Of a DNA stretch of 64,000 bases, positions 15,310 through 28,436 are shown piece after piece; position 1 is the stretch's first letter, and every line of letters begins with the position of its first letter. The translations under genes were made by a program, and so were the position numbers. Below the pieces are notes generated by a model. It made no database searches, had not been told where the DNA came from, and worked only from the letters and a program-made list of their open reading frames with translations. Location of the stretch: positions 1 to 64,000 of IMG/VR virus record IMGVR_UViG_3300048548_000653. One strand, written 5' to 3'. Source of the DNA: a virus.

Positions 15310-15533
15310 TGTGGGTAGACTATAATATTGATAGTATTCCTGGCGGTAAAGGATTTAAGGTGAAGGGCGATTGGGAAGGTGAAGTAATGGGTGTAGCTCA
15401 AGATGGCACACAAAAAGATCATTGGTTATACAAGCCCGGCGATGTATTTGTTGTAAATGAAAGTGGTTGGTTAGTTAAGACTGACGAAGTGAATGCACTT
15501 CTTCTGAAACACGAGAGTACGAATTCTGAATAA
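15306..15533 (+). CDS. hypothetical protein
   Basis: Coupled ORF. Confidence 0.6.
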   Translation: MMWVDYNIDSIPGGKGFKVKGDWEGEVMGVAQDGTQKDHWLYKPGDVFVVNESGWLVKTDEVNALLLKHESTNSE

Positions 15534-16143
15534 CTTCGGCAACCTGATGTGATACCATAGTTTCATAATGCGTGTGTGCTAGTTCTACCTTATCCATATC
15601 ATTCCTTGATTGCATACTTTCAAGTGTAACAACGCCGTCATTAGGGCCTCCGTGATATGGTACCATTCCGCTAGTAGTAATTATCTGTGTCCAAGGAATG
15701 TTTAATTTTACATCAGTTGCATTTTTTATAGGCAAACTTCTACGACCTACATCTCTAAATAATGGATAACTAGGAACAATATATTTTGCCCAGTCTGCTG
15801 TCCAGCTTCCAGCAAACGGTGTGCTAATACTTACACCTCCTACTATTCTATGCATCTGTGTTAGGTGTAAAGCATATAATCCACCCATACTGTGTCCTAT
15901 GACAAAGTGTGGTCCTTTGTTTTGAATTTGTTCGCTTATCTTATCAAGATTATAGTAAAACTTATCAGCACTACTATAATTTACAAAAATTTCATTTGTA
16001 AATTTAGTTTTATTTCGTAAATAATTAAAACTTAAACTAGTTTGGTTTGCCCCGTGTATCCAAATAACATTTATGTCATCGGTTTTACGCTTTTCTTCAA
16101 CAAAAGGCTTATTAAAATAATTCTTGAACAATAAATGCAGCAT
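15475..16143 (-). CDS. alpha/beta hydrolase
   Basis: WIHGA, GHSMGG, STPFAGS, NDGVV, HYE. Confidence 0.85.
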   Translation of the reverse strand: MLHLLFKNYFNKPFVEEKRKTDDINVIWIHGANQTSLSFNYLRNKTKFTNEIFVNYSSADKFYYNLDKISEQIQNKGPHFVIGHSMGGLYALHLTQMHRIVGGVSISTPFAGSWTADWAKYIVPSYPLFRDVGRRSLPIKNATDVKLNIPWTQIITTSGMVPYHGGPNDGVVTLESMQSRNDMDKVELAHTHYETMVSHQVAEVIQNSYSRVSEEVHSLRQS

Positions 16144-16146
16144 ATA

Positions 16147-18192
16147 TTATTTACTTGTGGCCACAAAAACGCCATTCCAATCTGAAGGCAAGTCTTGTGT
16201 TTTCATATACTCGCATCGTTCAATCCACATATCATAATATTTTTCCATTCTATGGTCAAAATTAGTGTATATTGTTTTACATAAACGTATAGCTTCATCC
16301 CAGTCCTGTGCTTTATATGCAGTATGCATATCGGCGTGTCTACGTTGGGGAACAGACCAAGCAGGTGGACCGCCATCGAGTACTGTATATATACTAAGTC
16401 CTACACTTTTGCCTTTGACTTGCAAGTCATCTACTTTGAGATAGAAGAAATCGTCTTTTGTTTGCTCGTATGTAGATTCTCCAACAAGTAGTAGACATCC
16501 GTACTCTTTACACTTGCTTTCTACTCTTGCTGCGGTGCTGACAGCGTCTCCAAGGACATCATATGAATGACGTTTAGTACTTCCCATTTCACCAAGGTAA
16601 CCCAACCCTGTGTTGATACCAGCACCCATACCAACAGCAGGACGACCATCAGGTATAATAACTTTTTCATTAAATTTTTCCACTGCTTTAAGCATATCTA
16701 AGCCACACTGTACTGCTGAACGAGCGTGGTTAGGATCATCTATAGGCGCATTGTGTATGTGCATACTTGCATCGCCTATGTACTTGATAATCATTCCATC
16801 CATATCTAAAACAGGTTGTGTAATACTGTCCATATAGCCATTCATAATTTTAGTAAGACCTTTAACATCATCACCAAAAGATTCACCTAGTGGTGTAAAT
16901 CCACGCAAATCACTGAACACTATACTAACTTCTTTTTTCATTCCTTCTTTGATTAAAGCAGGATTTTCTTGTAACATACGCACAACTGTAGGAGATGCAT
17001 ATCCAGCAAACTGTTTTTTGATAGCGTTCTTTTGTAAAAACTCGTCAACAAACTTTAATACATAACGTATTAATCCTACAAGAATTAAAAATGCAGCAGG
17101 TAAAGCACCGTCTACGAGCAAGGCATACTGTGCAAAAATATAGTTGCTACCATAAATGCTGCCGCCAACTGCAAGCACAAAAAAGGCTATACCTACATAT
17201 GTCCATCGTGCGATTAAAATTAGTACTATACCTACTGCTATAAAGGCGGCTAACTCTGCCCACTGTTCTGCGTCTGGATGTCTGCTAATATTTGATTGAT
17301 TAAACACTGTTCCTAGCATTGCTGCTTGTACTTCGTGTGGAAATACGCTGCCTGCTGCTGTTGCTAGTGGCTGTGTAAGCCCTGCTGCTGTTGGTCCTAC
17401 AAACACTATACCGCCAGCAAAGTCATCTGGTAAGTCTACTGCGCTCACGCTTTTGCTGCGTTGGCTCCAGTCTATCCACACTTCGCCTGTAGGTGATGTT
17501 TGTATTATACCAAACTGCGGTATGCGTAGTTTGTCTACACCCATAGGTGATAGTTTGATTTGGAACGAAGGATCACCTGCTAGAACACGTAGCACTTCCA
17601 TTGTAACATTTGGATACAATGTGCCGCCGCTTTCAACCACTAAAGGTATTCGTCTTGTTACGCCGTCTACTTCTGCCCAACTGTTGGTTATTCCACTGCC
17701 TACTGCCGAGAATTCCACATCAGGTACATTAGCAATAATACCAGGAACACTAGGAATGGTACCAATATAATCGCTGTTAACAATAGTAGCACCAGGATTG
17801 ATCGCTTCATTCTTATTCTCCTCTGCACCCAACATTGTAACGATAACAGGCAATTGCTGCATAGTTAAGGCTAATGTAGCATCTTCACCTGATCTGTCTG
17901 TTTCCGACATCAACACATTGAACACCACTAGTCCAGCGCCTCTGGCATATAAATCCTCTATAAGGCTACCATAATCACCTCTCGGCCACGGCCATTGTCC
18001 GTATGCCTCTAAACTTGGTTCATCGATGTTCACTGTGTAAATGTTGTTTTCAACAGGTTGTTGATTTACAATAAGTGTGTCAAAGTATCGTAGTTTAAGA
18101 CTTTCTAAAAATGGTGGATTACTTTGCATTACCCACGCAAGAATGCCCAAAACTATAATGCTCCATATTGGGGAAAATATTAGTTTTTTCAT
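16147..18192 (-). CDS. CHASE2-domain class III adenylate/guanylate cyclase
   Basis: GQWPWPR, DGVTRRIPL, TM bundle, FSDLRGFT, KYIGDA, GAGINTG, YDVLGDAVSTAARVE, VKGK. Confidence 0.92.
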   Translation of the reverse strand: MKKLIFSPIWSIIVLGILAWVMQSNPPFLESLKLRYFDTLIVNQQPVENNIYTVNIDEPSLEAYGQWPWPRGDYGSLIEDLYARGAGLVVFNVLMSETDRSGEDATLALTMQQLPVIVTMLGAEENKNEAINPGATIVNSDYIGTIPSVPGIIANVPDVEFSAVGSGITNSWAEVDGVTRRIPLVVESGGTLYPNVTMEVLRVLAGDPSFQIKLSPMGVDKLRIPQFGIIQTSPTGEVWIDWSQRSKSVSAVDLPDDFAGGIVFVGPTAAGLTQPLATAAGSVFPHEVQAAMLGTVFNQSNISRHPDAEQWAELAAFIAVGIVLILIARWTYVGIAFFVLAVGGSIYGSNYIFAQYALLVDGALPAAFLILVGLIRYVLKFVDEFLQKNAIKKQFAGYASPTVVRMLQENPALIKEGMKKEVSIVFSDLRGFTPLGESFGDDVKGLTKIMNGYMDSITQPVLDMDGMIIKYIGDASMHIHNAPIDDPNHARSAVQCGLDMLKAVEKFNEKVIIPDGRPAVGMGAGINTGLGYLGEMGSTKRHSYDVLGDAVSTAARVESKCKEYGCLLLVGESTYEQTKDDFFYLKVDDLQVKGKSVGLSIYTVLDGGPPAWSVPQRRHADMHTAYKAQDWDEAIRLCKTIYTNFDHRMEKYYDMWIERCEYMKTQDLPSDWNGVFVATSK

Positions 18193-18359
18193 TTATTCAA
18201 ATCTATCCAAACACAATCTACAGTTTGATTTCTATCTGTCACAAGCACTGCTGCTTTACTTAATGCTGTAACACAATCTTCTTTGTCAGCATAATTAGCT
18301 AAGTGATAAAGTTCCATTTCCTGAGTGCTTGTTAGTGCTAACCATATTAGTGCCCACAT
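18189..18359 (-). CDS. small secreted two-Cys protein, 56 aa (not in ORF track)
   Basis: MWALIWLALTS...EDC...VDCVW; stop overlaps the cyclase ATG. Confidence 0.6.
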   Translation of the reverse strand: MWALIWLALTSTQEMELYHLANYADKEDCVTALSKAAVLVTDRNQTVDCVWIDLNK

Positions 18360-18523
18360 AATACTTTCTCCACTAGTGCTGACTTTAAATGCTCACCATT
18401 TTTAACTAGAAACTCTCTAATGTGTTTGTTGCTTGCGTCTGCTAATATCGACATTTCTTCTCCAACCATTACTGTATCTGCAGGTAATTTGTCAGCCACA
18501 GGTATTTCCTTTTCAAATTTCAT
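18347..18523 (-). CDS. hypothetical protein
   Basis: AAGGAGAGGGCA before the ATG. Confidence 0.55.
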   Translation of the reverse strand: MKFEKEIPVADKLPADTVMVGEEMSILADASNKHIREFLVKNGEHLKSALVEKVLCGH

Positions 18524-18543
18524 TGCCCTCTCCTTACGAGTAT

Positions 18544-18918
18544 TTACCAAGTTTTTTTATTTAACTTAGCTTTTAATGAATCCTGCTCTTCACGCTTCTT
18601 CCTGGCTTTCTCAACTTCTGCCATAGTATCTTCATACCAGTTTTCATTGTTTACTTTAGCAGTCTTTTTCCGTACTCTGGGTTGGGAATGTCCGGGTACT
18701 TCCAATATAGTACTGGGCTCTTTTTCTCTTTTGGTTTCAATTTGAATCCTTTGTGCTGGTGGCGGAAAATTGTTACGGAGTCGTTTGATTCGTTCTTGTA
18801 GTTCTTTTTGTTTTGACTCATAGTATCTTTCATACATTTTTTCCTTAAAACGTTTGTCTACCATTTCTATTATAAATGGTTGTAAAAAACGTGCAAGTAA
18901 ACGGCCTAACATTACCAA
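18544..18918 (-). CDS. hypothetical basic protein
   Basis: ORF within operon. Confidence 0.5.
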   Translation of the reverse strand: MVMLGRLLARFLQPFIIEMVDKRFKEKMYERYYESKQKELQERIKRLRNNFPPPAQRIQIETKREKEPSTILEVPGHSQPRVRKKTAKVNNENWYEDTMAEVEKARKKREEQDSLKAKLNKKTW

Positions 18919-19394
18919 CTTCCATTAATTTTTCCGATTATGTAAACTACAAACACAAGCAAACCTGCACCTATAATTGCTGCTATTGACCCAACTATCC
19001 ATTCTACAATAACTTGTTTGCGTTCTTCTTTTGCATAAACTTCGGCAGCACGTTTTTTACGCATTTCACCTTCAATGCGTACAATTTCGTCCCAAGCACT
19101 TGGACCGTAGTAAAAGCTGATGTGCGTTTTCATTTCTTCACGCATTTCTTTTGCTTTCTGTTTGTGTCCCCAAATTTCTAGAGCATTTTGCTCTATTTGA
19201 CTTGCGCCAAACAGTTTTTTGAACATTGGTGGATTTTGTGCTTGTTTGTGTGAAAAGTCTAAATCACTCATTGCGCCTGCCCACTGCGATAGTGTGCCTG
19301 CCATATCGTGCAGTTCTTTTCCGGTGTCTATTGCTGACTTGATTCCGCGATATGCTGCCGTGGCCAGACCAATAGCTGATACTGGATCTATCAT
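18912..19394 (-). CDS. C-terminally membrane-anchored coiled-coil phage protein
   Basis: MIDPVSAIG...; C-terminal TM segment. Confidence 0.7.
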   Translation of the reverse strand: MIDPVSAIGLATAAYRGIKSAIDTGKELHDMAGTLSQWAGAMSDLDFSHKQAQNPPMFKKLFGASQIEQNALEIWGHKQKAKEMREEMKTHISFYYGPSAWDEIVRIEGEMRKKRAAEVYAKEERKQVIVEWIVGSIAAIIGAGLLVFVVYIIGKINGSW

Positions 19395-19436
19395 TTGCCC
19401 TCATTTCTAGTAGATGCCCTCTACTAAAGGTATTTA

Positions 19437-21344
19437 TCAAAACTGGATTTTAAGACCAACACTTAACATATTGCTACTAGCGTCATCACTGATACTTCTT
19501 TGAAAGTCGCCTACAAACTTTACATTTTCTGTAACTTGCTTGTCAATGCCAATACCAATATTTGTAGTACCTTCGGTGGTTCTACTAATATGTGCTGTAC
19601 CAAAGTCGAGATCAAAATTAGCACCTAGTGTAGCATAACGATACGATTCATCAATTGCTTCGTGAACTATAGCACTTTGTACACTTCCTGTTTCTGTATA
19701 AGCATCTGTTGAACGCTTGCCTGCTACAATACCTAGCACTGGACGAACTTGTCCTGTGTTTGGTTCAACTTCTACATTTACCCAAGTGTCACTAATAGCA
19801 TATTCGCCTTGGTTAGTAAAGGTACCAATGTGTCTTTCATATGTAATATCTTGACTAGCACGATTGATTGTACCACGTACTGTGAATTCATCTAATGCTT
19901 TGCTTGCTCCTACGCCCATATGTAGAGTGGTCATATCACCTGTACTACAAGCGTCAGCTTTTGTAGTTATTCTGTTGATACCACCTTCAATGGTGATTAA
20001 ATCGTCTGTAGTGGTCGATCCACCGATACCTAACACACGACTTTCAGCACTACATCCGTGCCCTAAATCTGATGTAATACGGCTACCAGCTACATAATCA
20101 GCAAAACCCAAACTGTGTAAGTCTACAGCTTGTCCAATCTTTTTACCAGTGTCCATACGTCCTGTAAAGCTGCCTGGGTCAGTTACAGTTGATACTGCTA
20201 CTGAATCTGCTGCTGCGCTTGAAGTAAGTGTGCCATCAGTGTATGTATTAGTAACCATAGGTGTTGTAACTATTGTAGTAGTTTCTCTTGCTATAGTTTG
20301 CACGCCTGCTGCTGTTGTGCTATTGTGTGTAGTTTGTGACTGTGTTAGCACTGGCATACTAGTGTCTACAACAGTTTCAGTTGTAATCACTGGTTCTGCT
20401 GCTCCGGCTGCTGCGTCTGTAGCACTACCAACATCTTCTAATGTACCCCAACTACTGATGTCACCACCGCCACCTGCGCCTGCTGTAATAGCAGCATCGG
20501 CAGCATCAAACGCACTTGGTCCAAATATGTATGCGTAACTTGCTGTAAGTATATCGCCTGTGCTTACATCGGCCCAGTTCCAACTTAGTCCAATAGTGTT
20601 GTCGCCTGTGTTTGTGTTTGACTCTGAGTCAAAAGCATTTTCTGTATAAGCATCTGCCTCTGTTGACCAGCCTGTAATACCTGCATCAACGTTAGAGTCT
20701 GTAGAGTACAGTCCTAGGGCATAGCGTGATACTGTTGCTTCTGCAAATGCTACGTTACTATCTGGAATAACACCATAACCTAGCACGTTGTCTGTAGCAC
20801 TAGTATCGCCTGCTTCTGGCATAGCATCTGGATCAATAAAGCGTCCAAAGCTAAGTGCAGTAGCATCACTACCTGCTGTAATCTGTGTGCCAATCTCAAT
20901 GTGTTCTGATGTATCACCTAATGTATATGTGTTTTCTATTTCCCATCCACTGTGAGCAGAATTTGTACCAGTCCAAGTAAGTGAATTATCACCGTTTGTT
21001 AAACCATCTGCATCTACCCAAGTACTTCCGCCCTGGTTATTATTTTTGCTGTTAGTACCATCTATCTTAATAGCAAAGCCATCAAACGGTGAACCTGGTG
21101 TTAGGTAGTCGCCTTGTGCGCTATCTGCTGGAAATGTGCCTGAACCTGTGCTGTCAAACTGTAGTCCTGGACGAGTGCTTCCGCCTGATCCAAAAGTACC
21201 TGCTGTGCCATTCACTCCGGCTTTTACATAACTGTTTTCTAGTACACCCATACCTGTTGCTGTTGTACTAATGCTACTTGTATCTGCTAATGCTGTTGTA
21301 CCAAGTAGTGCTGCCATTACACTGGCAATCATTATTCTTTTCAT
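19437..21344 (-). CDS. autotransporter-like outer-membrane protein
   Basis: Signal peptide, Thr/Gly/Asp-rich passenger, Thr-rich linker, beta-barrel ending LSVGLKIQF. Confidence 0.7.
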   Translation of the reverse strand: MKRIMIASVMAALLGTTALADTSSISTTATGMGVLENSYVKAGVNGTAGTFGSGGSTRPGLQFDSTGSGTFPADSAQGDYLTPGSPFDGFAIKIDGTNSKNNNQGGSTWVDADGLTNGDNSLTWTGTNSAHSGWEIENTYTLGDTSEHIEIGTQITAGSDATALSFGRFIDPDAMPEAGDTSATDNVLGYGVIPDSNVAFAEATVSRYALGLYSTDSNVDAGITGWSTEADAYTENAFDSESNTNTGDNTIGLSWNWADVSTGDILTASYAYIFGPSAFDAADAAITAGAGGGGDISSWGTLEDVGSATDAAAGAAEPVITTETVVDTSMPVLTQSQTTHNSTTAAGVQTIARETTTIVTTPMVTNTYTDGTLTSSAAADSVAVSTVTDPGSFTGRMDTGKKIGQAVDLHSLGFADYVAGSRITSDLGHGCSAESRVLGIGGSTTTDDLITIEGGINRITTKADACSTGDMTTLHMGVGASKALDEFTVRGTINRASQDITYERHIGTFTNQGEYAISDTWVNVEVEPNTGQVRPVLGIVAGKRSTDAYTETGSVQSAIVHEAIDESYRYATLGANFDLDFGTAHISRTTEGTTNIGIGIDKQVTENVKFVGDFQRSISDDASSNMLSVGLKIQF

Positions 21345-21406
21345 TTTTTACCCTCTTGTTATGATGCCGGTTGCGCCCTCACGCCGCGGTCCATATTCTT
21401 TGATTG

Positions 21407-21754
21407 TTATTTAAGCATAATCTCCAATCCAAAAACTACGCCGATATCTTTACTTTCTATGCCTGGTGCTAAGAACATTCTCATTTTACCTACGTCATAT
21501 GTGCCTCTGACATACGGAGTAAGTGATCCATTGTTGTAGCCTGTTACAAGTGCAGCTTCAAAACCAAAGTTGTTTATTTCTTGTCTGTGTCCTGCATATA
21601 CACTTAAATTTTCTAAACTGTTATAATATGCGCCTGTGATAAAATTTTCGTGTTCAAACCTAATATGGGGATGTACACTATTGTAGTGATCGTCAAATCC
21701 AAGATGTAAACTTAAACCTAAACTTAATGTGAATGCTTCAATTATACTATTCAT
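21407..21754 (-). CDS. small outer-membrane beta-barrel protein
   Basis: LSLH, GAYYNS, SVYAG, LVTGY; alternating-strand pattern. Confidence 0.6.
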   Translation of the reverse strand: MNSIIEAFTLSLGLSLHLGFDDHYNSVHPHIRFEHENFITGAYYNSLENLSVYAGHRQEINNFGFEAALVTGYNNGSLTPYVRGTYDVGKMRMFLAPGIESKDIGVVFGLEIMLK

Positions 21755-22434
21755 TAGTTGTTCCTATTAACAGACAAACTACAACCATTACTGTTAGTAC
21801 AATATCCTGTGACGCTATAATGGCTAGATGCAGTTGAAACATTCTGAGTAAGTTCAAAGTTGTATGCACCGCCTGAATTTGTTAAGTCAACTTCTGCTTC
21901 TGCATATTCAGTTCCTCTTTGCATAACATCAACTGAGTGTCCGTCTCCTGTGAGTACAACATCTGCCCATTTTTGCCCACCATTGCCTCTTTGGTACAAG
22001 TTAACTTCGTTGTCATCACCTTGTATTTCTACAAAGCCATCGTGTCCTTGTTTTCCCATTTGCGTATGGTTAACTTCATTGTTATCACCATTTACTATAT
22101 TTGCAAGGTGATGTGCTGCGCCTCCACCACTTCTGTTTGTGTCTGTTTGCGCACTTCCCACTGTGTTTCCATCTCCAGTTATAGTCCAATATGCTTCGTG
22201 TCCACCTTCTTCGTCTATGTCAATAGTGCCATCTACGTGCATACCTTGACGAATTGTAATATTGTTAGAACCACCATTGCTGTTTAAACTAACATAGTTG
22301 TCCTCGCTACGCTGTTGCACTTCCAATTCAAGGTTGTCGCCTGCTTGGTTTATATAGATTTCGTTACTAAAAGCCACGTTGGGAAATATTAATACTATTC
22401 CCGCCGCCCACGCCAACACGGTAGCCGTATGCAT
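21754..22434 (-). CDS. curlin-like repeat secreted protein 2
   Basis: Signal peptide, NEIYINQAG, repeated GDxN-x-V-x-x-x-Q-x-G units. Confidence 0.7.
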   Translation of the reverse strand: MHTATVLAWAAGIVLIFPNVAFSNEIYINQAGDNLELEVQQRSEDNYVSLNSNGGSNNITIRQGMHVDGTIDIDEEGGHEAYWTITGDGNTVGSAQTDTNRSGGGAAHHLANIVNGDNNEVNHTQMGKQGHDGFVEIQGDDNEVNLYQRGNGGQKWADVVLTGDGHSVDVMQRGTEYAEAEVDLTNSGGAYNFELTQNVSTASSHYSVTGYCTNSNGCSLSVNRNN

Positions 22435-23485
22435 AGAAGCCCTCCTGTTCCATATCTATATTATATCCATAACCTTGATCCAATGTAAGTTGGAATATGT
22501 GTTGATCGCCTTCTTGCCTACGCACTATAAAATTAGGATAATTTTCATCGTAAAAAATATTAGTTTCAGGGTCTAGTCCTAAAAGCTTTACATCTAATAA
22601 TTCTTGGTTTTGTACAGAAAGTTCGTCAATCCACTGTGCTAGTATTTCTGCCAACTGTCTCTCCATTTCGTCAATCCACACAGGATTCAAGTAAGTCATA
22701 TTATCCAAATCTGTAACCCAAATACTTTTTATATTTTCAACTAAAGGATCTCTATCTAACTCGTCAAAATTTAAAAAGTCAATGTCTAATAAATTTGTAT
22801 TTGGATAGGTTTTGGTTATTTCTTCTGTGTAAGGTGAAACTTTACGTACAAGCAACATTGCTGTAAGCATATTCTCAGGTAAATCTAATATTACACTTGG
22901 GCCTGGAGTTGCACCTCTATGTGGCACCACAGTGGTTTGATAAGCTTGATTCATTATAATTTGACCAACATCTGATTCTACTGATATTTCTCCTATAACA
23001 CAAGAACCACTAGCGTCACAACTTGGTAACAGTGTTATCATTGATCCACCTACTTCGTCAATAATCATCATAAAGTCTGTGCCTCGCACGTTTATTGTAG
23101 CACTTGGTGTTCTTATATTCACTCTTTGTCTGCTATTCTTTGCTATTTGTCCTGATGCATATCTAACTGCTCCTAGTGTGGCTTTCATACTCAGCGCACC
23201 AGTTTTTGTGTTGGGATCATATATAAATTCGTCTATGGTCATACGTGAATGTTCTGTTACATCAACACGAGTGTCATCTATAAAGTCCATACGCATTGAA
23301 CCTTTGCCTGTAACGATCCTATCGTTCATTTCAAGACCAAGTCCTACTTCGCCAGTGTATTTTTCTGCTTCACGCTGAATTGTGCTAGAACCTTTATGTT
23401 CTGCTATTTTGCCAATATTTGCATACACTGGGGTTGTTAGTAATAATGCACTAATCAGACTGCGTAATATCAACGTCTTGTCCAT
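22367..23485 (-). CDS. secreted FecR-domain protein
   Basis: Signal peptide; MNDRIVTG, F.DDT, IDEFIYDP, RTPSATINVRGTDF. Confidence 0.85.
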   Translation of the reverse strand: MDKTLILRSLISALLLTTPVYANIGKIAEHKGSSTIQREAEKYTGEVGLGLEMNDRIVTGKGSMRMDFIDDTRVDVTEHSRMTIDEFIYDPNTKTGALSMKATLGAVRYASGQIAKNSRQRVNIRTPSATINVRGTDFMMIIDEVGGSMITLLPSCDASGSCVIGEISVESDVGQIIMNQAYQTTVVPHRGATPGPSVILDLPENMLTAMLLVRKVSPYTEEITKTYPNTNLLDIDFLNFDELDRDPLVENIKSIWVTDLDNMTYLNPVWIDEMERQLAEILAQWIDELSVQNQELLDVKLLGLDPETNIFYDENYPNFIVRRQEGDQHIFQLTLDQGYGYNIDMEQEGFYAYGYRVGVGGGNSINISQRGF

Positions 23486-24188
23486 CGCCTGAGAATGTAG
23501 CATCTACTGTGTTATCTTTTACACCACTTTGTTTAATTTTGTAGTTGCTGCCGCCGCCGGTGATATCTAGTGTTACACTGTGTCCTGCGCTGTCTCCATC
23601 GCCGTCTTGATCTATTTCGACTAACACACCGCCTTGTTCTGTTGTGTAAGTTGATGATGAGTCTGAGGTTGTAGCTGACGAAAGTGTAGAATTATTGTCT
23701 ATTGTAACATTGACTACCGCACTTGTGCCGTCAACTTCTGTGATCAATATGCTTCCGTCGCCCTCTACTGTAAAATCAATTTGCGCTCCGTCTGCATCTG
23801 CTGTTTCACCAATTTCTAAATAATACTTGTTGGTATCTCCTGTAGTTGCAATATTCAGTGTGACGTTTTCACAGTTTACACCTGAGGTATTATCGCAGAC
23901 TAAATCAACAAAATTGTTGTTGCCTGTAAAAGTCCAAGTACCAGTATATGTATTACCTTTTATTTTTGCATCAATTATGTTTGCATTACCTGTTTGAGTA
24001 ATACTAAAAGTCATATCATCGCCATCAAGCATTGCGTCGGTGGTTGAATCACCAAATTCGTTGTCAGTCCCATCTTGTGTAATATCTAAATCAAGGGTGT
24101 CACCTATTTGTGTAATGTAAATCTCGTTTGCATTTGCTGCACTTACGAGAACCAATGATAGGATGAACCCATATAATATTGCCCTCAT
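23451..24188 (-). CDS. curlin-like repeat secreted protein 1
   Basis: GGAGGTG RBS; signal peptide; NEIYITQIGD.LDLDITQDG.DN repeats. Confidence 0.75.
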   Translation of the reverse strand: MRAILYGFILSLVLVSAANANEIYITQIGDTLDLDITQDGTDNEFGDSTTDAMLDGDDMTFSITQTGNANIIDAKIKGNTYTGTWTFTGNNNFVDLVCDNTSGVNCENVTLNIATTGDTNKYYLEIGETADADGAQIDFTVEGDGSILITEVDGTSAVVNVTIDNNSTLSSATTSDSSSTYTTEQGGVLVEIDQDGDGDSAGHSVTLDITGGGSNYKIKQSGVKDNTVDATFSGDGQDVDITQSD

Positions 24189-24218
24189 ATTTTTCCACCT
24201 CCGGCTTTTAGCCAAATA

Positions 24219-24278
24219 TATTTATAATATGTTGATATTATTATAAATACAATGTTATTTAGTGTAAATATTTTTACA
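24219..24278. promoter_or_regulatory. back-to-back TATAAATA late promoters plus TGTAAA-N4-TTTACA palindrome
   Basis: 11-bp inverted repeat at 24219-24229/24239-24249; palindrome at 24263-24278. Confidence 0.55.
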
Positions 24279-24294
24279 GTAAAGCGGGTATATA

Positions 24295-24564
24295 ATGAAA
24301 CTAAATACAGTTATGATGGCATTAAAACAAGCAGAAAAAAATCATAAAGAACAGCAGGCCTTTTGGGATGTATTTGACGAGATATGGCCGCCCGAAGAAA
24401 GACAAGATGATAAATGTTTGCACCAAGAAGTAGACGATTTTATAATAGATAGGATTGCAGCGGCTCTAAAAGAGTGCAATCACAATCGCACACACACTGC
24501 TGATAAGTTAGGAATAAAAAGAGAAACCTTATTGGCTAAGATGAAGAAGTACTGTCTTGTTTAA
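24295..24564 (+). CDS. Fis-type (HTH_8) DNA-binding protein
   Basis: IAAALKECNHNRTHTADKLGIKRETLLAKMKKY. Confidence 0.85.
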   Translation: MKLNTVMMALKQAEKNHKEQQAFWDVFDEIWPPEERQDDKCLHQEVDDFIIDRIAAALKECNHNRTHTADKLGIKRETLLAKMKKYCLV

Positions 24565-25336
24565 ATTTCCATAGATTTTGTGCAGCACCTTGATAAATCA
24601 TTTCAATTACTGCGGCCTCGATGGCTTGACGCACGGCATAATTTGATGCTTCATTTACACTATATCCAGTTTCGATTTCTAATGCTTGTGTACCTAAATC
24701 AAAAAACTTGAATGCGTTTGCACCTTGTCTGTAACTAGCAATTGATTTTTCTGCTGCTACGCTTACCAATACACGACCTGTGCTTACGCTTACAAGACGC
24801 ATTGCAACTGTCACAGTATCAACTCTATATTCTACCGCAGTACCGATTCCCATATACATAGCACCATTGCCGCCTGTAGAAATATTACTGTCATATCCTA
24901 TAATACCGCCTTCTAGTAATATACCTGCAAATTTCATAGGTGATAGAGAAACTTCTTTTTCACCATAGTTTTCCCTTGTATTGCGTATAACCTGACGTTC
25001 TTTGATCACGTGATCCATTCCACCTCGTTCTACAACTTCAAACCAAGTACCGTTGCCTGCTTGCAATAGTGCATCTATTACCCAAACTTCTGCACCTTGT
25101 GTAACTGCACTACTCAAGTTTGAAATACTTTCAGAGGGTTTACGTTGCCCTGTTTTATCTGCAAACTCATAAACACCTACTGTCATTACAGGACCATCCA
25201 ATGGCTGAAGTTTATTTAATTCTTCTACCATTGGATTATCCTGCACTTTTGCAGCATTTTGCAGCATAGTTGGAACTTCTCCTTGTGTTGCACAACCTGC
25301 AACAAATAACATTGCTAATATTGCTATAAATTTCAA
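24536..25336 (-). CDS. csgG: CsgG/HfaB-family curli secretion lipoprotein
   Basis: Lipobox VAGC, VYEFADKTGQRKP, AVTQGA, WFEVVER, EGGIIGYD, YRVDTVTV.MRLVSV.TG. Confidence 0.9.
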   Translation of the reverse strand: MKFIAILAMLFVAGCATQGEVPTMLQNAAKVQDNPMVEELNKLQPLDGPVMTVGVYEFADKTGQRKPSESISNLSSAVTQGAEVWVIDALLQAGNGTWFEVVERGGMDHVIKERQVIRNTRENYGEKEVSLSPMKFAGILLEGGIIGYDSNISTGGNGAMYMGIGTAVEYRVDTVTVAMRLVSVSTGRVLVSVAAEKSIASYRQGANAFKFFDLGTQALEIETGYSVNEASNYAVRQAIEAAVIEMIYQGAAQNLWKFKQDSTSSS

Positions 25337-25806
25337 AAGTTAAATTCCCCCATTCCTGGTATCACTATTTCCGTGTAGCCATCTGGACCATCGATAATAA
25401 GTGTTATACTTCCTGTGACTTCATCTTTGCTCCAAGCAATTTCTGCTCCTTCAACTTCTGTGGTTCCTGAATTAGAACACGCAGGCTGATCATCTGCTCC
25501 GCAGGCTGCAAACATATTGTCAACTAACTGTTTACTAAGTGTAGCATATATACGTGATTCTAAGTTACGGATAAACTTATTAAGCACCGTGTTTTCAAGT
25601 TCACGCTCAATGCGTTCTGCTTCACGTTCCGCATCTTTTCTGATATCTTCTTTACGATTAAAAGTAAGTTGTTCAAGGCTCAACATATGAGCACTGTAGC
25701 CTTGTCCTGTAAATGTAGGAGATTTAAAATTGTGTACTAAATCGCCGCTGGCTACTCCGGGGGTAACCATTAATATGAAAAAAATAATTTTAAAATAATA
25801 TTGCAT
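25333..25806 (-). CDS. csgF: CsgF-like curli assembly protein
   Basis: Signal peptide then LVHNFKSPTFTG, resembling the CsgF N-terminal pore-binding peptide; adjacent to csgG. Confidence 0.75.
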   Translation of the reverse strand: MQYYFKIIFFILMVTPGVASGDLVHNFKSPTFTGQGYSAHMLSLEQLTFNRKEDIRKDAEREAERIERELENTVLNKFIRNLESRIYATLSKQLVDNMFAACGADDQPACSNSGTTEVEGAEIAWSKDEVTGSITLIIDGPDGYTEIVIPGMGEFNF

Positions 25807-25838
25807 AAAGCTATTTATTAACAAAAAAGTTGAGAATA

Positions 25839-26909
25839 TTAAATCATTGCTTTGTTTAAAGTAAGTTGAGCCCATTGTTCTCGGCCAGCACCTGCTTGTG
25901 TTGGTATAACACTGATTGATAAGCCGCCTGCGTGTCCGCCTGTTCTGAATGCTTGTAAATCTGCTGCATTTTTTAGCATTGCAGTTTTTTGATTAGGAAT
26001 ACTCATTAGCAATAGTGCATCAAAGTCGTCTCTATTTTTATACCATTCAAAGTTTGCAGCCAAATAAGCTAGTTCAACTTGTGCTGTGTCTTCAGTTGTT
26101 GCAATTTTATCTGCAACTGATGCAGCATAATTCTCCATATCCATTTGCAGTAAATCAAGCATTAATGCTTTTCTTACCTTTTGGTTTTCTGGAACATTTG
26201 TAGGAAGGTCTTGATTTAAAGCAGCCATAAAAGGTCCTAGTCCGAGACTTCCGCCTTTTTGTCCAATGGCTCCAATTACTGACGGTATTTTTTCTTCATA
26301 CTTTTGTAGGACTGCACGTTTTGCTTTTTGACTTCCGCCACCGTAACCGATACGTCCACCACTAGAACTCATAGCTGCTTTAAGTTCTACTTTCCCAATT
26401 CCATCTATTTCTAAATCGCCTTCGCCTTGTGCAAGTCTAATTTTGTTTGATAAACAGGCTAGTCCATATTCGCCTGGACCTTTTTGTTTTTTACCTACAC
26501 CATATGCTGCTAATTTTCTAAAAGCTGCACCTCCGGCTTCGTCTCCAAACACTGCGCTAAAGGTATTGAGTGGCTTTGACAGAGATGTAATATCTACTAC
26601 GCCGCCGCCTTCTAATCTTTTAAGAAGAGCGCTCATTGTTTTATAATCGCTTTCGATTGTACTAAAAATTTTAGTCATATCTTGGCGCACTAGTAACTTT
26701 TCTTTTTGACCCATATTTTCATCTTGAAGAGGAATATCAAAAGCATTGTCAATGTTACTACTAATAGTACCACTGTTAAGTATTTTCCATATTCTATCTA
26801 ATAAATTAGCTTCATCTTGATTATCTGCCGACAATCCGGATATAGTTGATATAATTTGATCTTTTTCTTGACTTAAGTCTGTGTATTCAACAAGGTCTTT
26901 ATAACGCAT
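25839..26909 (-). CDS. PD-(D/E)xK nuclease-like protein with virion-type leader
   Basis: GPGE...GDL...VELKA; MRYKDLVE leader; TAAATA upstream. Confidence 0.55.
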   Translation of the reverse strand: MRYKDLVEYTDLSQEKDQIISTISGLSADNQDEANLLDRIWKILNSGTISSNIDNAFDIPLQDENMGQKEKLLVRQDMTKIFSTIESDYKTMSALLKRLEGGGVVDITSLSKPLNTFSAVFGDEAGGAAFRKLAAYGVGKKQKGPGEYGLACLSNKIRLAQGEGDLEIDGIGKVELKAAMSSSGGRIGYGGGSQKAKRAVLQKYEEKIPSVIGAIGQKGGSLGLGPFMAALNQDLPTNVPENQKVRKALMLDLLQMDMENYAASVADKIATTEDTAQVELAYLAANFEWYKNRDDFDALLLMSIPNQKTAMLKNAADLQAFRTGGHAGGLSISVIPTQAGAGREQWAQLTLNKAMI

Positions 26910-26930: not shown

Positions 26931-27617
26931 TTAGTCAATGTCAGGGAATAAACATTCCTGTACGAATACTCGTACATCCTCTTCGTCGAGTCCTAAACTG
27001 GTCATTGTTTTAGGAGTGTGCGGATTTTGTTTTTGATAATGTGCATAACGATTCTGTGCTGTTTTTACTTCGTCTGTATCTGCTGTATGATTATGATTAC
27101 CAATGTCTGTAAGATAAGCATCTACACTGTCTAAACTCAACTCTAACAGTTGATCAAGTTCTTCACGTTTGTTCACATTGCCTGCTGCTACCATATGCGG
27201 TGAGAAGATTGCTTGAGCCCATTCAGGTAGTTCACGTTCTTTGCGCCATTCAAGTTTGCTTACTTCGTCACCAAATGCTTCAATCATTGGATGATCGGCA
27301 TCTATAGTTCTACTGTAGTCGTGGAAGAACCCTGTAATTTTATTTTTACCAGCAATAACATCTAGTCCAAAAACAGGACCGTTATTGTCTAGTCTTGGAA
27401 AAACACAACAATGCATCATCCACAAACCTTTGGTTTCACGCACATCCACAACATCAATGTGTGCTCTACGATAGCTGTCACTTTGCCATACTCTGTTTAA
27501 CCAACCAGGCTGATTGAATCTATCCATTCCTGGCTCTTGTATTTCTGTACCCGTAGCGTCAAATGCATCAATTAACCTGTCTTGTATTTCTATTAAGGTT
27601 TCCCAAACTTCACTCAT
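26931..27617 (-). CDS. pcyX: ferredoxin-dependent bilin reductase, PcyX type
   Basis: RRAHIDVVD, LWMMHCCVFP, FGLDVIAG, FHDYS, LPEWA..IFS, QKQNPHT. Confidence 0.85.
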   Translation of the reverse strand: MSEVWETLIEIQDRLIDAFDATGTEIQEPGMDRFNQPGWLNRVWQSDSYRRAHIDVVDVRETKGLWMMHCCVFPRLDNNGPVFGLDVIAGKNKITGFFHDYSRTIDADHPMIEAFGDEVSKLEWRKERELPEWAQAIFSPHMVAAGNVNKREELDQLLELSLDSVDAYLTDIGNHNHTADTDEVKTAQNRYAHYQKQNPHTPKTMTSLGLDEEDVRVFVQECLFPDID

Positions 27618-28137
27618 TATTTAATTCCTCAAACAATTTGGTTGCATATTTAAAACAAATATTTGCTTCCTCTGCCATTTCGTCATCCAACACAGTACGA
27701 ACTTTTATTTTAAGGTCTTCGACATTATCAAAATCATACATAACACCTTTTGTAAATGGAATACGTTTTTTAATCATTTGACCTCCATACATATCTCCAA
27801 AGTGTCTAACATAAACGTGGGCCATTAGTTCATCACTATCAAGTGTAGGAAGGTAATTAATATAATCTACAGCACTAGGTTTTAGTTTATCTTTTGTTCT
27901 TTTAAAACCATATTCGTGTTCTAATTCTTTTAAATCAATACTAATGCGTTTGGCTCTGCGTATGTCTTCAATGCCGTCTAAGTCAGCTAATGATTCAAGA
28001 GAACCGTAGATAATAAATTGATTGTACAAGTAGGTGTGATATTGTTCAGGAGTAATACCATTCATAAGTTTCCTGGCAAATGCTGTTCTTTCAGCATTTT
28101 GATGATTCTCCCAAGTAAGTTCTTTAAGTTTGCTCAT
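27610..28137 (-). CDS. hemO: heme oxygenase
   Basis: LKELTWENHQNAE, AHVYVRHFGDMYGGQMI, EANICF. Confidence 0.92.
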   Translation of the reverse strand: MSKLKELTWENHQNAERTAFARKLMNGITPEQYHTYLYNQFIIYGSLESLADLDGIEDIRRAKRISIDLKELEHEYGFKRTKDKLKPSAVDYINYLPTLDSDELMAHVYVRHFGDMYGGQMIKKRIPFTKGVMYDFDNVEDLKIKVRTVLDDEMAEEANICFKYATKLFEELNNE

Positions 28138-28436
28138 TCTTCCTCAATTTTTACATTTAGCTGAAACCCATTTTGCCTTGCTAAATTTACAGTTTCCGTA
28201 GCTTTTTGTTCTGCTATTTCGTAACTATATATACCTGCAACTCCGCTTCCTTCTTCGTGAATTTGAATGGTTAAAGCAGAAGCAGTTTCAAAAGAGTGTT
28301 TGAATATTTCTTGTAAAATACTTACAACAAAATCCATTGGTGTTTTATCATCATTAAGGAAAATGACTTTGCAATCCTTAGGTTCTGAAATATCAATTTC
28401 AATTTTTTCGTCAATTACTACATCAGTTTTATTCAT
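28134..28436 (-). CDS. clpS: ClpS N-degron adaptor
   Basis: VIFLNDDKTPMDFV, IHEEGSG, YEIAEQK. Confidence 0.93.
   Translation of the reverse strand: MNKTDVVIDEKIEIDISEPKDCKVIFLNDDKTPMDFVVSILQEIFKHSFETASALTIQIHEEGSGVAGIYSYEIAEQKATETVNLARQNGFQLNVKIEEE

Follow-up and report, generated by a model that had tools for sequence, protein, structure and literature searches.

A pelagiphage-type curli secretion module on an uncultured virus contig carries a FecR-CHASE2 pair that may link the curli pore or fibre to cyclic AMP synthesis

A tight minus-strand run of genes in the virus record IMGVR_UViG_3300048548_000653 of IMG/VR, extending from 15475 to 25875, is a viral type VIII (curli) secretion module of the pelagiphage type, located on a new uncultured contig and interrupted by extra insertions. 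The window, that is, the whole stretch of DNA analysed here, comprises 64,000 nt out of the 76,977 bases of the record, for which CheckV gives a completeness of ~24%. The core of the module consists of six genes encoding CsgF, CsgG, a curlin-repeat protein (curlin 1), a secreted FecR-domain protein, a second curlin-repeat protein (curlin 2) and a receptor adenylate cyclase with a CHASE2 sensor. We consider it somewhat probable that this phage type VIII secretion system (T8SS) module couples its curli pore or fibre to the synthesis of cyclic AMP (cAMP) by way of the FecR-CHASE2 pair. The simplest account of the sequences is that the phage has brought together a FecR-CHASE2 pair and a kit for curli export, which occur separately in bacteria. 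A physical link of the FecR protein to the pore or fibre is plausible, as is the relay across the envelope, from fibre to FecR to cyclase, that an initial annotation of this DNA had proposed. All the genes which that annotation had named for the block lie on the minus strand where it had placed them, with Pfam support for the main domains.

The phage origin of the record is evident from a phage-type ribonucleotide reductase and structural matches within the window. Its closest record is a Kyanoviridae myophage, and the closest cultured phage is Methylophilales phage Melnitz (record MZ577097). Near-identical DNA occurs in seawater metagenomes, in at least 14 runs from 13 studies. Two cassette-bearing relatives (L041 and L028) measure 221 kb (rated 100% complete by CheckV) and 300 kb (86%), so that part of this phage group is jumbo-sized, in contrast to the roughly 140-kb cultured pelagimyophages.

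Much of the cassette has been described before. The genes csgF and csgG, with neighbouring genes, were first reported from pelagimyophages in 2020, where the curli genes were placed in a hypervariable region (PMC7029224), and the pore of Melnitz was discussed in 2022 as a possible lysis-timing device (PMC9004378). A further study of 2022 described CsgF, CsgG, CsgA/B, FecR, a second CsgA/B and an adenylate cyclase in myo- and podo-pelagiphages alike, along with the global distribution, metatranscriptome presence and likely alphaproteobacterial origin of the viral cassette (PMC9599517). In that work FecR was treated as an iron-related regulator, the host lineage of related phages was found to be without any csg gene, and the podovirus form was seen to have a histidine kinase preceding csgF. 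In the Melnitz record, the six core genes are contiguous and all annotated. The view of the initial annotation that csgF and csgG alone had been noted in marine phages, and that the complete chain was not known, is therefore out of date. On the other hand, PMC7029224, PMC9004378 and PMC9599517 make no mention of CHASE2, of a bacterial FecR-CHASE2 pairing, of an autotransporter or of PagP. The CHASE2 identity of the cyclase sensor is an addition made here.

The module of the window shares with that of Melnitz and other pelagiphages its six genes, their order and orientation, the lack of CsgE and the marine phage context, the Melnitz cyclase being 51% identical to that of the window in protein and 77.7% identical in nucleotides over 665 bases. 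It differs in its additional genes: the stretch from curlin 2 to the cyclase holds a PagP-like gene, an autotransporter and four small genes, the cyclase is followed by a hydrolase, and an antisense helix-turn-helix gene (HTH_8) lies inside the operon. A search of the contig for HATPase_c revealed no histidine kinase, a feature that is not required of the myovirus form.

The order of the core genes is strongly conserved. For synteny anchored on the cyclase, 79 related viral loci were fetched and counts made over the 50 non-redundant ones with at least 6 kb upstream; upstream of the cyclase, CsgF, CsgG, curlin 1 and FecR follow one another in the same order in 49 of these 50, at cyclase identities down to about 44%, and curlin 2 is also present in 48. 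For synteny anchored on csgG, we took the best 80 of at least 590 viral contigs, which are of the myovirus type throughout, and found the FecR gene and the CHASE2 cyclase downstream of csgG in all 36 loci that have at least 6.5 kb on that side. The co-occurrence of cyclase and FecR with csgG in other genomes, on which the initial annotation had made its proposal depend, is thus the rule. Three pairs of genes overlap, namely csgF/csgG, curlin 1/fecR and fecR/curlin 2. Since neither order nor orientation changes among the six core genes while the insertions vary, the core is a conserved unit; the reading of the whole block as one module holds for these six genes, and the autotransporter, the PagP-like gene, the small genes and the hydrolase are variable insertions.

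The curli export genes are readily recognised (Table 1; Pfam bit cut-offs are 20.7 for Curlin_rpt, 24 for FecR and 25.8 for CsgF). CsgF has a signal peptide followed by the N-terminal pore-binding motif DLVHNFKSPTFTGQGYS, and all CsgF homologues carry the motif FKSPxFxGxGYS directly after the signal peptide. CsgG, in which Cys15 is invariant among 19 homologues, is 39-46% identical to alphaproteobacterial CsgG, and the TTG start of its gene overlaps the csgF stop. Curlin 1 bears NEIYITQIGDTLDLDITQDG after its signal peptide and DVDITQSD at its end, and curlin 2 has NEIYINQAGD after the signal peptide and the C-terminus GCSLSVNRNN. An N-terminal NEIYIxQxGD strand is conserved in the curlin-repeat proteins, both of which are found in essentially every locus. 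Sec signal peptides are present on CsgF, both curlins, the FecR protein and the 635-aa autotransporter-like protein, and CsgG has a lipobox; these signals argue against the alternative, raised in the initial annotation, that the curlin-like proteins are virion components. Like csgBAC/csgDEFG of Escherichia coli, the module comprises a CsgG lipoprotein channel, a CsgF with an N-terminal plug motif and secreted curlin-repeat subunits, but the gene order is different and no CsgC, CsgD or CsgB was recognised. A search for CsgE (PF10627) that matched the E. coli control found none in the 77-kb contig, itself ~24% complete.

The FecR protein is predicted to consist of a signal peptide, a beta domain (about residues 31-205), a disordered stretch, a helix and a six-strand C-terminal domain (AlphaFold; predicted local distance difference test score, pLDDT, 72.6). 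Its beta domain matches, by Foldseek, BDI_1681 and the periplasmic signalling domain of anti-sigma factors represented by the C-terminal domain of PupR (6ovk), which in cell-surface signalling binds an outer-membrane transducer. The FecR domain starts about 30 residues after the signal peptide, with no N-terminal anti-sigma domain or transmembrane (TM) helix, and a search of the contig for Sigma70_r2 found no extracytoplasmic function (ECF) sigma factor. With neither a cytoplasmic anti-sigma part nor an ECF sigma factor in the contig, the protein is not a Fec-type regulator. Its periplasmic FecR-type fold is also that of FecA-FecR-FecI, where it makes contact with an outer-membrane protein, but the phage protein has a cleavable signal peptide in place of the anti-sigma domain and TM helix, and no ECF sigma.

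The C-terminal domain of the FecR protein is specific to the phage form. It ends in GGGNSINISQRGF, and all 28 sequences compared have the motif GxNxIxIxQ with little or no variation; this last strand resembles the terminal strands of the neighbouring curlins. A profile of the domain searched against 1.84 billion representatives placed it C-terminally in all 106 FecR-type relatives, apart from a few short matches inside giant Calx-beta/PPC repeat proteins, which we judged uninformative. A fold search of BFVD with the FecR protein returned only other phage entries named 'FecR protein'. Separately, Foldseek aligned a 62-column stretch of the FecR model with 5ix9 (MpIBP RIN; E 2.8e-3, TMt 0.74, root-mean-square deviation (rmsd) 1.1, 27% identity). 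This match, listed under about residues 316-375 (window 22367-22560), is an unplaced lead; RIN is the 'cell-surface anchoring' domain of MpIBP, a periplasmic 'plug' by which this LapA-type adhesin is retained in its TolC-like pore (PMC5550230).

The cyclase is built of a first TM segment (3-24), a periplasmic CHASE2 domain, three TM segments (308-386), a class III cyclase domain, which also matches PDB cyclases, and a tail of ~75 aa. Asp428 and Asp474 (metal), Lys470, Asp545 and Arg556 are invariant in the 57 phage cyclases of the main clade. The residue at the position of Asp545 is Ser or Thr in bacterial CHASE2 cyclases. A few phage-like loci (L087, L091 and L114) keep bacterial-type cyclase residues.

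Phylogenetically wider searches show where the sensor half of the module has its counterparts. A profile of phage FecR proteins, run against one genome per prokaryotic species, yielded 69 bacterial FecR loci (L093-L161), mostly from Alphaproteobacteria. The similarity is limited to the FecR domain, at 26-43% identity over about residues 10-210, and none of the 69 loci has CsgG, CsgF or a curlin. Instead, a Slam/type-11-like protein made of tetratricopeptide repeats (TPR) and a beta-barrel adjoins the FecR gene in 52 of the 69, a count taken from a jackhmmer search seeded with a Pfam-confirmed SlipAM protein; a Pfam tally on 47 barrel proteins gave TPR_19 in 31, SlipAM in 14 and DUF2860 in 13. 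A CHASE2 sensor lies within 10 kb of FecR in 18 of the 69 loci, and barrel and CHASE2 are both present in 15. The genomes checked carry only 1-3 CHASE2 genes each, so the adjacency of FecR and CHASE2 is not a matter of chance. That a FecR protein stands next to a CHASE2 sensor is therefore a recurrent bacterial pairing, in line with published cases: a LysM-FecR protein encoded beside a CHASE2 kinase in the 'BiofilmReg' operon of Burkholderiales and Pseudomonas aeruginosa (PMC5192318), and the FecR-domain gene smc02177, part of the CyaD1/Clr pathway of Sinorhizobium meliloti (PMC5498481). As the bacterial FecR relatives are without curli genes, beside Slam-like barrels and often beside CHASE2, the phage may have swapped the outer-membrane partner.

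The phage module thus resembles this bacterial triad without being a member of it. Both have a homologous FecR domain, a CHASE2 sensor of the same topology (often a class III cyclase in bacteria) and an outer-membrane barrel in the operon. The phage, however, has CsgG/CsgF and curlins instead of the TPR-barrel and a phage-specific part after the FecR domain, and its cyclases carry Asp545 and Ser552 at positions occupied by Ser/Thr and Asn in the bacterial enzymes. The Sinorhizobium pathway NsrA-CyaD1/CyaD2/CyaK-Clr, likewise alphaproteobacterial, also has CHASE2 cyclases needing an outer-membrane beta-barrel, NsrA, which acts upstream of them (PMC7529298, PMC13001267), and a Clr-regulated secreted FecR protein; it differs in sensing a plant protein signal, in having no curli secretion and in its known cAMP receptor, Clr, whereas none was found in the phage. 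The papers examined gave no support to NsrA being Slam-like. BiofilmReg resembles the phage module in that the gene of a secreted FecR protein lies next to that of a CHASE2 membrane sensor in a biofilm-linked operon, and departs from it in having a histidine kinase with response regulator output, LysM on the FecR protein and no csg genes.

Other observations from the survey concern hosts and cargo. Two SAR11 single-cell loci (L129 6617-10564 and L154 6511-10402) encode a CHASE2-SpoIIE (PP2C) protein, a Slam-like TPR-barrel and a 191-aa FecR protein; judged by its gene content, this CHASE2-PP2C operon appears to be the host counterpart of the phage sensor pair, with another output. An 806-aa bacterial FecR protein (L102 9944-12361) carries at its C-terminus a TbpB_B_D/FHBP_C barrel, which is the hallmark of proteins exported by type 11 secretion, and the C-terminal parts of the other 53 bacterial FecR relatives belong to no Pfam family.

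Bona fide bacterial loci combining curli genes with FecR and CHASE2 were sought, and the ten apparent cases (L082-L091), the best loci of the FecR profile search, turned out to be phage contigs binned into metagenome-assembled genomes (MAGs). These MAGs are named as Polynucleobacter, Rhodobacteraceae, Legionellales, Pirellulales, Flavobacteriaceae, Pelagibacter TMED203 and Luteolibacter, and one of the contigs (L090) encodes a clamp loader, a sliding clamp, a DNA ligase and an endolysin. Such contigs could pass for bacterial curli-FecR-cyclase loci. No TPR protein with a DUF560/SlipAM-type barrel was found in the 11 phage-like loci L082-L092. Conversely, in the 7 alphaproteobacterial genomes whose CsgG is closest, neither FecR nor CHASE2 nor a cyclase lies within 10 kb of csgG.

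Taken together, the gene content suggests how the module may work. During infection, CsgG and CsgF would enter the host outer membrane, and the two curlins would be exported through them to form a surface fibre. The FecR protein and the CHASE2 cyclase would constitute an extracytoplasmic sensor pair of the bacterial kind, in which the curli pore takes the place of the Slam/type-11-like barrel and a small beta domain, with a curlin-like final strand, stands where bacterial FecR proteins have their own C-terminal part. Through the FecR protein, the pore or fibre would be linked to the CHASE2 domain in the periplasm and cAMP synthesis would be modulated, with the cAMP acting on a host receptor rather than a phage one. 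The autotransporter, the PagP-like protein, the tail-anchored protein, the hydrolase and the antisense HTH gene would be accessory, further remodelling or regulating the envelope of the infected cell. In a bolder form, the phage would have rebuilt bacterial envelope-spanning signalling, with FecR, at or through CsgG/CsgF or on the fibre, reporting the state of the surface to cAMP synthesis; this version we regard as rather unlikely.

Several results weigh against such coupling. In 57 of 57 main-clade phage cyclases the transition-state Asn is replaced by Ser (Ser552), a residue that the bacterial CHASE2 cyclases examined keep as Asn. The same change of Asn to Ser in mammalian cyclase strongly lowers turnover. 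With Ser in place of the catalytic Asn, the output of the phage cyclase may be low or altered; what the initial annotation called a cyclase producing a cyclic nucleotide monophosphate (cNMP) does have CHASE2, a class III domain and the metal Asp, Lys and Arg residues, and lacks the Asn of a full catalytic set. No cNMP-binding domain was found in the contig or in five large relatives (including complete Melnitz and a 221-kb genome), and one borderline cNMP-binding protein occurs in 2 of 4 single-cell genomes of SAR11, which may not be the host. The likeness of the FecR C-terminus to the curlins is likewise limited: aligned by hhalign with the curlin 1 family it covers 11 columns (E 0.014, probability 3%), Curlin_rpt matches 4 of 27 C-termini with a best E of 0.003, and the PDB holds no sequence match. 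As the likeness amounts to a short motif only, we do not call this C-terminus a curlin repeat. Melnitz-infected cells showed no clumping (PMC9004378). Finally, RNA libraries from 3 studies contain short fragments over the cyclase, autotransporter, curlin 2, fecR, csgG and csgF; these are weak evidence of expression, as transcription, strand and level are not provable from contigs.

The strongest competing explanation is that two independent modules were inherited together, a curli fibre kit serving aggregation, 'sibling capture' or superinfection exclusion, and a separate FecR-CHASE2 sensor of some periplasmic ligand, with no physical coupling between them. This is possible, if on the unlikely side. 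It would fit the separation of the halves in bacteria, where FecR/CHASE2 loci are without csg genes and CsgG loci without FecR or CHASE2, as well as the statistical weakness of the similarity between FecR C-terminus and curlins and the report that viral curli regions do not invariably include FecR and the cyclase (PMC9599517). The arrangement of the genes speaks against it, however. The fecR gene is flanked by the two curlin genes, with an overlap on either side, and the order is kept in 49/50 and 36/36 loci even as cyclase identity falls to about 44%. The phage-specific C-terminal domain of FecR is conserved, and 52/69 bacterial FecR relatives come with a barrel of their own, so that an outer-membrane partner seems to be part of the logic of these systems.

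An improbable alternative to a coupled fibre is that CsgG/CsgF is a plain pore, used for pinholin- or secretin-like lysis timing or for import as proposed for Melnitz and the pelagimyophages (PMC9004378, PMC7029224), with the curlins and FecR being accessory or regulatory. The CsgE gate was not found in our contig search or in PMC9599517, Melnitz cultures did not clump (PMC9004378), and the cyclase could act as a timing signal. Nevertheless, essentially every locus encodes two signal-peptide proteins with Pfam-level curlin repeats and NEIYIxQxGD strands, so canonical substrates exist for the pore, whereas the text of PMC9004378 took csgA/B as absent. That the genes are unrelated morons in a hypervariable island, with no joint function, is very improbable: the stretch from curlin 2 to the cyclase is indeed variable, with the autotransporter, PagP-like, p160, p124 and hydrolase genes coming and going, and curli genes have been placed in a hypervariable region (PMC7029224), yet order and orientation of the six core genes are the same in every locus examined and the module is common to myo- and podoviruses (PMC9599517), so that synteny largely refutes this explanation for the core and leaves it standing for the accessory genes.

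Table 1 Features of the curli-FecR-CHASE2 block in the window, with occurrence of accessory genes among the 50 cyclase-anchored loci
Feature	Position	Strand	Properties and matches	Loci
csgF-like	25333-25806	-	157 aa from internal ATG; open frame up to 25875; Pfam CsgF E 7.3e-9, 36.3 bits	
csgG	24536-25336	-	266 aa; outer-membrane lipoprotein channel; lipobox LFVAGC; Pfam CsgG E 2.1e-48	
HTH_8 (Fis-type) gene	24295-24564	+	89 aa; antisense, between csgG and curlin 1; Pfam E 2e-10	
Two mirrored TATAAATA boxes (T4-type late-promoter consensus)	24219-24249		Between curlin 1 and HTH gene	
Curlin-repeat protein 1	23451-24188	-	245 aa from ATG 24188; GGAGGT Shine-Dalgarno; Curlin_rpt 23.6 bits	
Secreted FecR-domain protein	22367-23503	-	378 aa; Pfam FecR 31.9 bits; PHROG 37870 E 2e-89	
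Curlin-repeat protein 2	21754-22434	-	226 aa; Curlin_rpt E 4.1e-7, 30.3 bits	
PagP-like protein	21407-21754	-	115 aa; PHROG 3600 'PagP' E 5.7e-12	20/50
Type Va autotransporter-like outer-membrane protein	19437-21344	-	635 aa; AlphaFold and Foldseek	16/50
p160	18912-19394	-	PHROG 32327; C-terminal TM anchor	19/50
p124	18544-18918	-	Small gene, variably present	9/50
p67	18347-18550	-	Small gene, variably present	
p56	18189-18359	-	Small gene, variably present	
CHASE2 receptor adenylate cyclase	16147-18192	-	681 aa; Pfam CHASE2 E 2.8e-36, Guanylate_cyc E 6.9e-19	
Alpha/beta hydrolase	15475-16143	-	222 aa; GHSMG nucleophile elbow; Hydrolase_4 and Abhydrolase_6 at about cut-off	12/50

The accessory genes occupy the gap from curlin 2 to the cyclase or follow directly on the cyclase (Table 1). 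Among them, the 635-aa protein has a signal peptide, a beta passenger rich in Gly, Thr and Asp, a linker helix (399-404), a 12-strand barrel (419-633) and a terminal F, in an AlphaFold model with a pLDDT of 66.7 overall and about 85-93 in the C-terminal third. Foldseek aligned the barrel best with NalP (1uyo; E 2.6e-7, TMt 0.67, rmsd 3.4), then with EstA, BrkA, EspP and Hbp. Because the barrel matches autotransporter translocators, the initial call of an autotransporter stands. The protein shares with these type Va autotransporters the signal peptide, linker helix, 12-strand barrel and terminal Phe, but differs from them in having no match to the Pfam Autotransporter family (PF03797) up to E 10 and in that all its related clusters are viral; PF03797 is found in 55% of the members of its viral neighbour cluster in the Atlas.

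The neighbouring 115-aa protein, initially read as a small outer-membrane barrel, is PagP-like by part of the PHROG 3600 profile (E 5.7e-12) and by an Atlas lead of 0.91, and has no signal peptide, no Pfam match and no PDB sequence match. As for the small genes annotated as membrane proteins, a clear TM segment is present at the C-terminus of the 160-aa protein and none is clear in the remaining ones. The hydrolase has no signal peptide and is confined to the closest relatives.

The antisense HTH_8 gene had been overlooked in the initial annotation. Its homologues in 21 related loci are always antisense, at the same spot or just upstream of csgF, and it may be a candidate regulator of the module. 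A canonical TATAAATA stands 38 nt before the ATG of curlin 1, and the mirrored box precedes the HTH gene. The proposal that TAAATA late promoters serve the block finds a suggestively positioned site at curlin 1 only, with no enrichment across the block: the density of TAAATA is 0.85/kb in the block vs 0.875/kb as the window background, and TATAAATA occurs 7 times in the window where 8.5 are expected.

Upstream of the cassette, a 356-aa protein without any Pfam or PHROG match (25839-26909, minus strand) overlaps the beginning of csgF and is kept at 88-90% identity in three related loci (L003, L006 and L011). Further along, just upstream of the cassette on the same strand (26931-28436), lie genes for a ferredoxin-dependent bilin reductase, a heme oxygenase and ClpS, which are found upstream of the cassette in 22/50, 17/50 and 15/50 related loci, respectively.

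Few auxiliary gene sets of marine phages are as widespread as this cassette, with at least 590 IMG/VR contigs carrying a CsgG relative. Reading FecR as the partner of CHASE2, and not as an iron regulator, turns a vague question of function into one of direct binding and reconstitution, as does the barrel found beside its bacterial relatives, and the conserved change from Asn to Ser, together with the fact that no cAMP receptor was found, poses concrete puzzles. If FecR does report the state of the surface, what is reported would be fibre load, contact or superinfection, and the module would be the first virus-encoded system of signal transduction across the envelope. As the host lineage is without curli genes (PMC9599517), infection would equip abundant ocean bacteria with a surface structure new to them and perhaps also with a new input for signalling.

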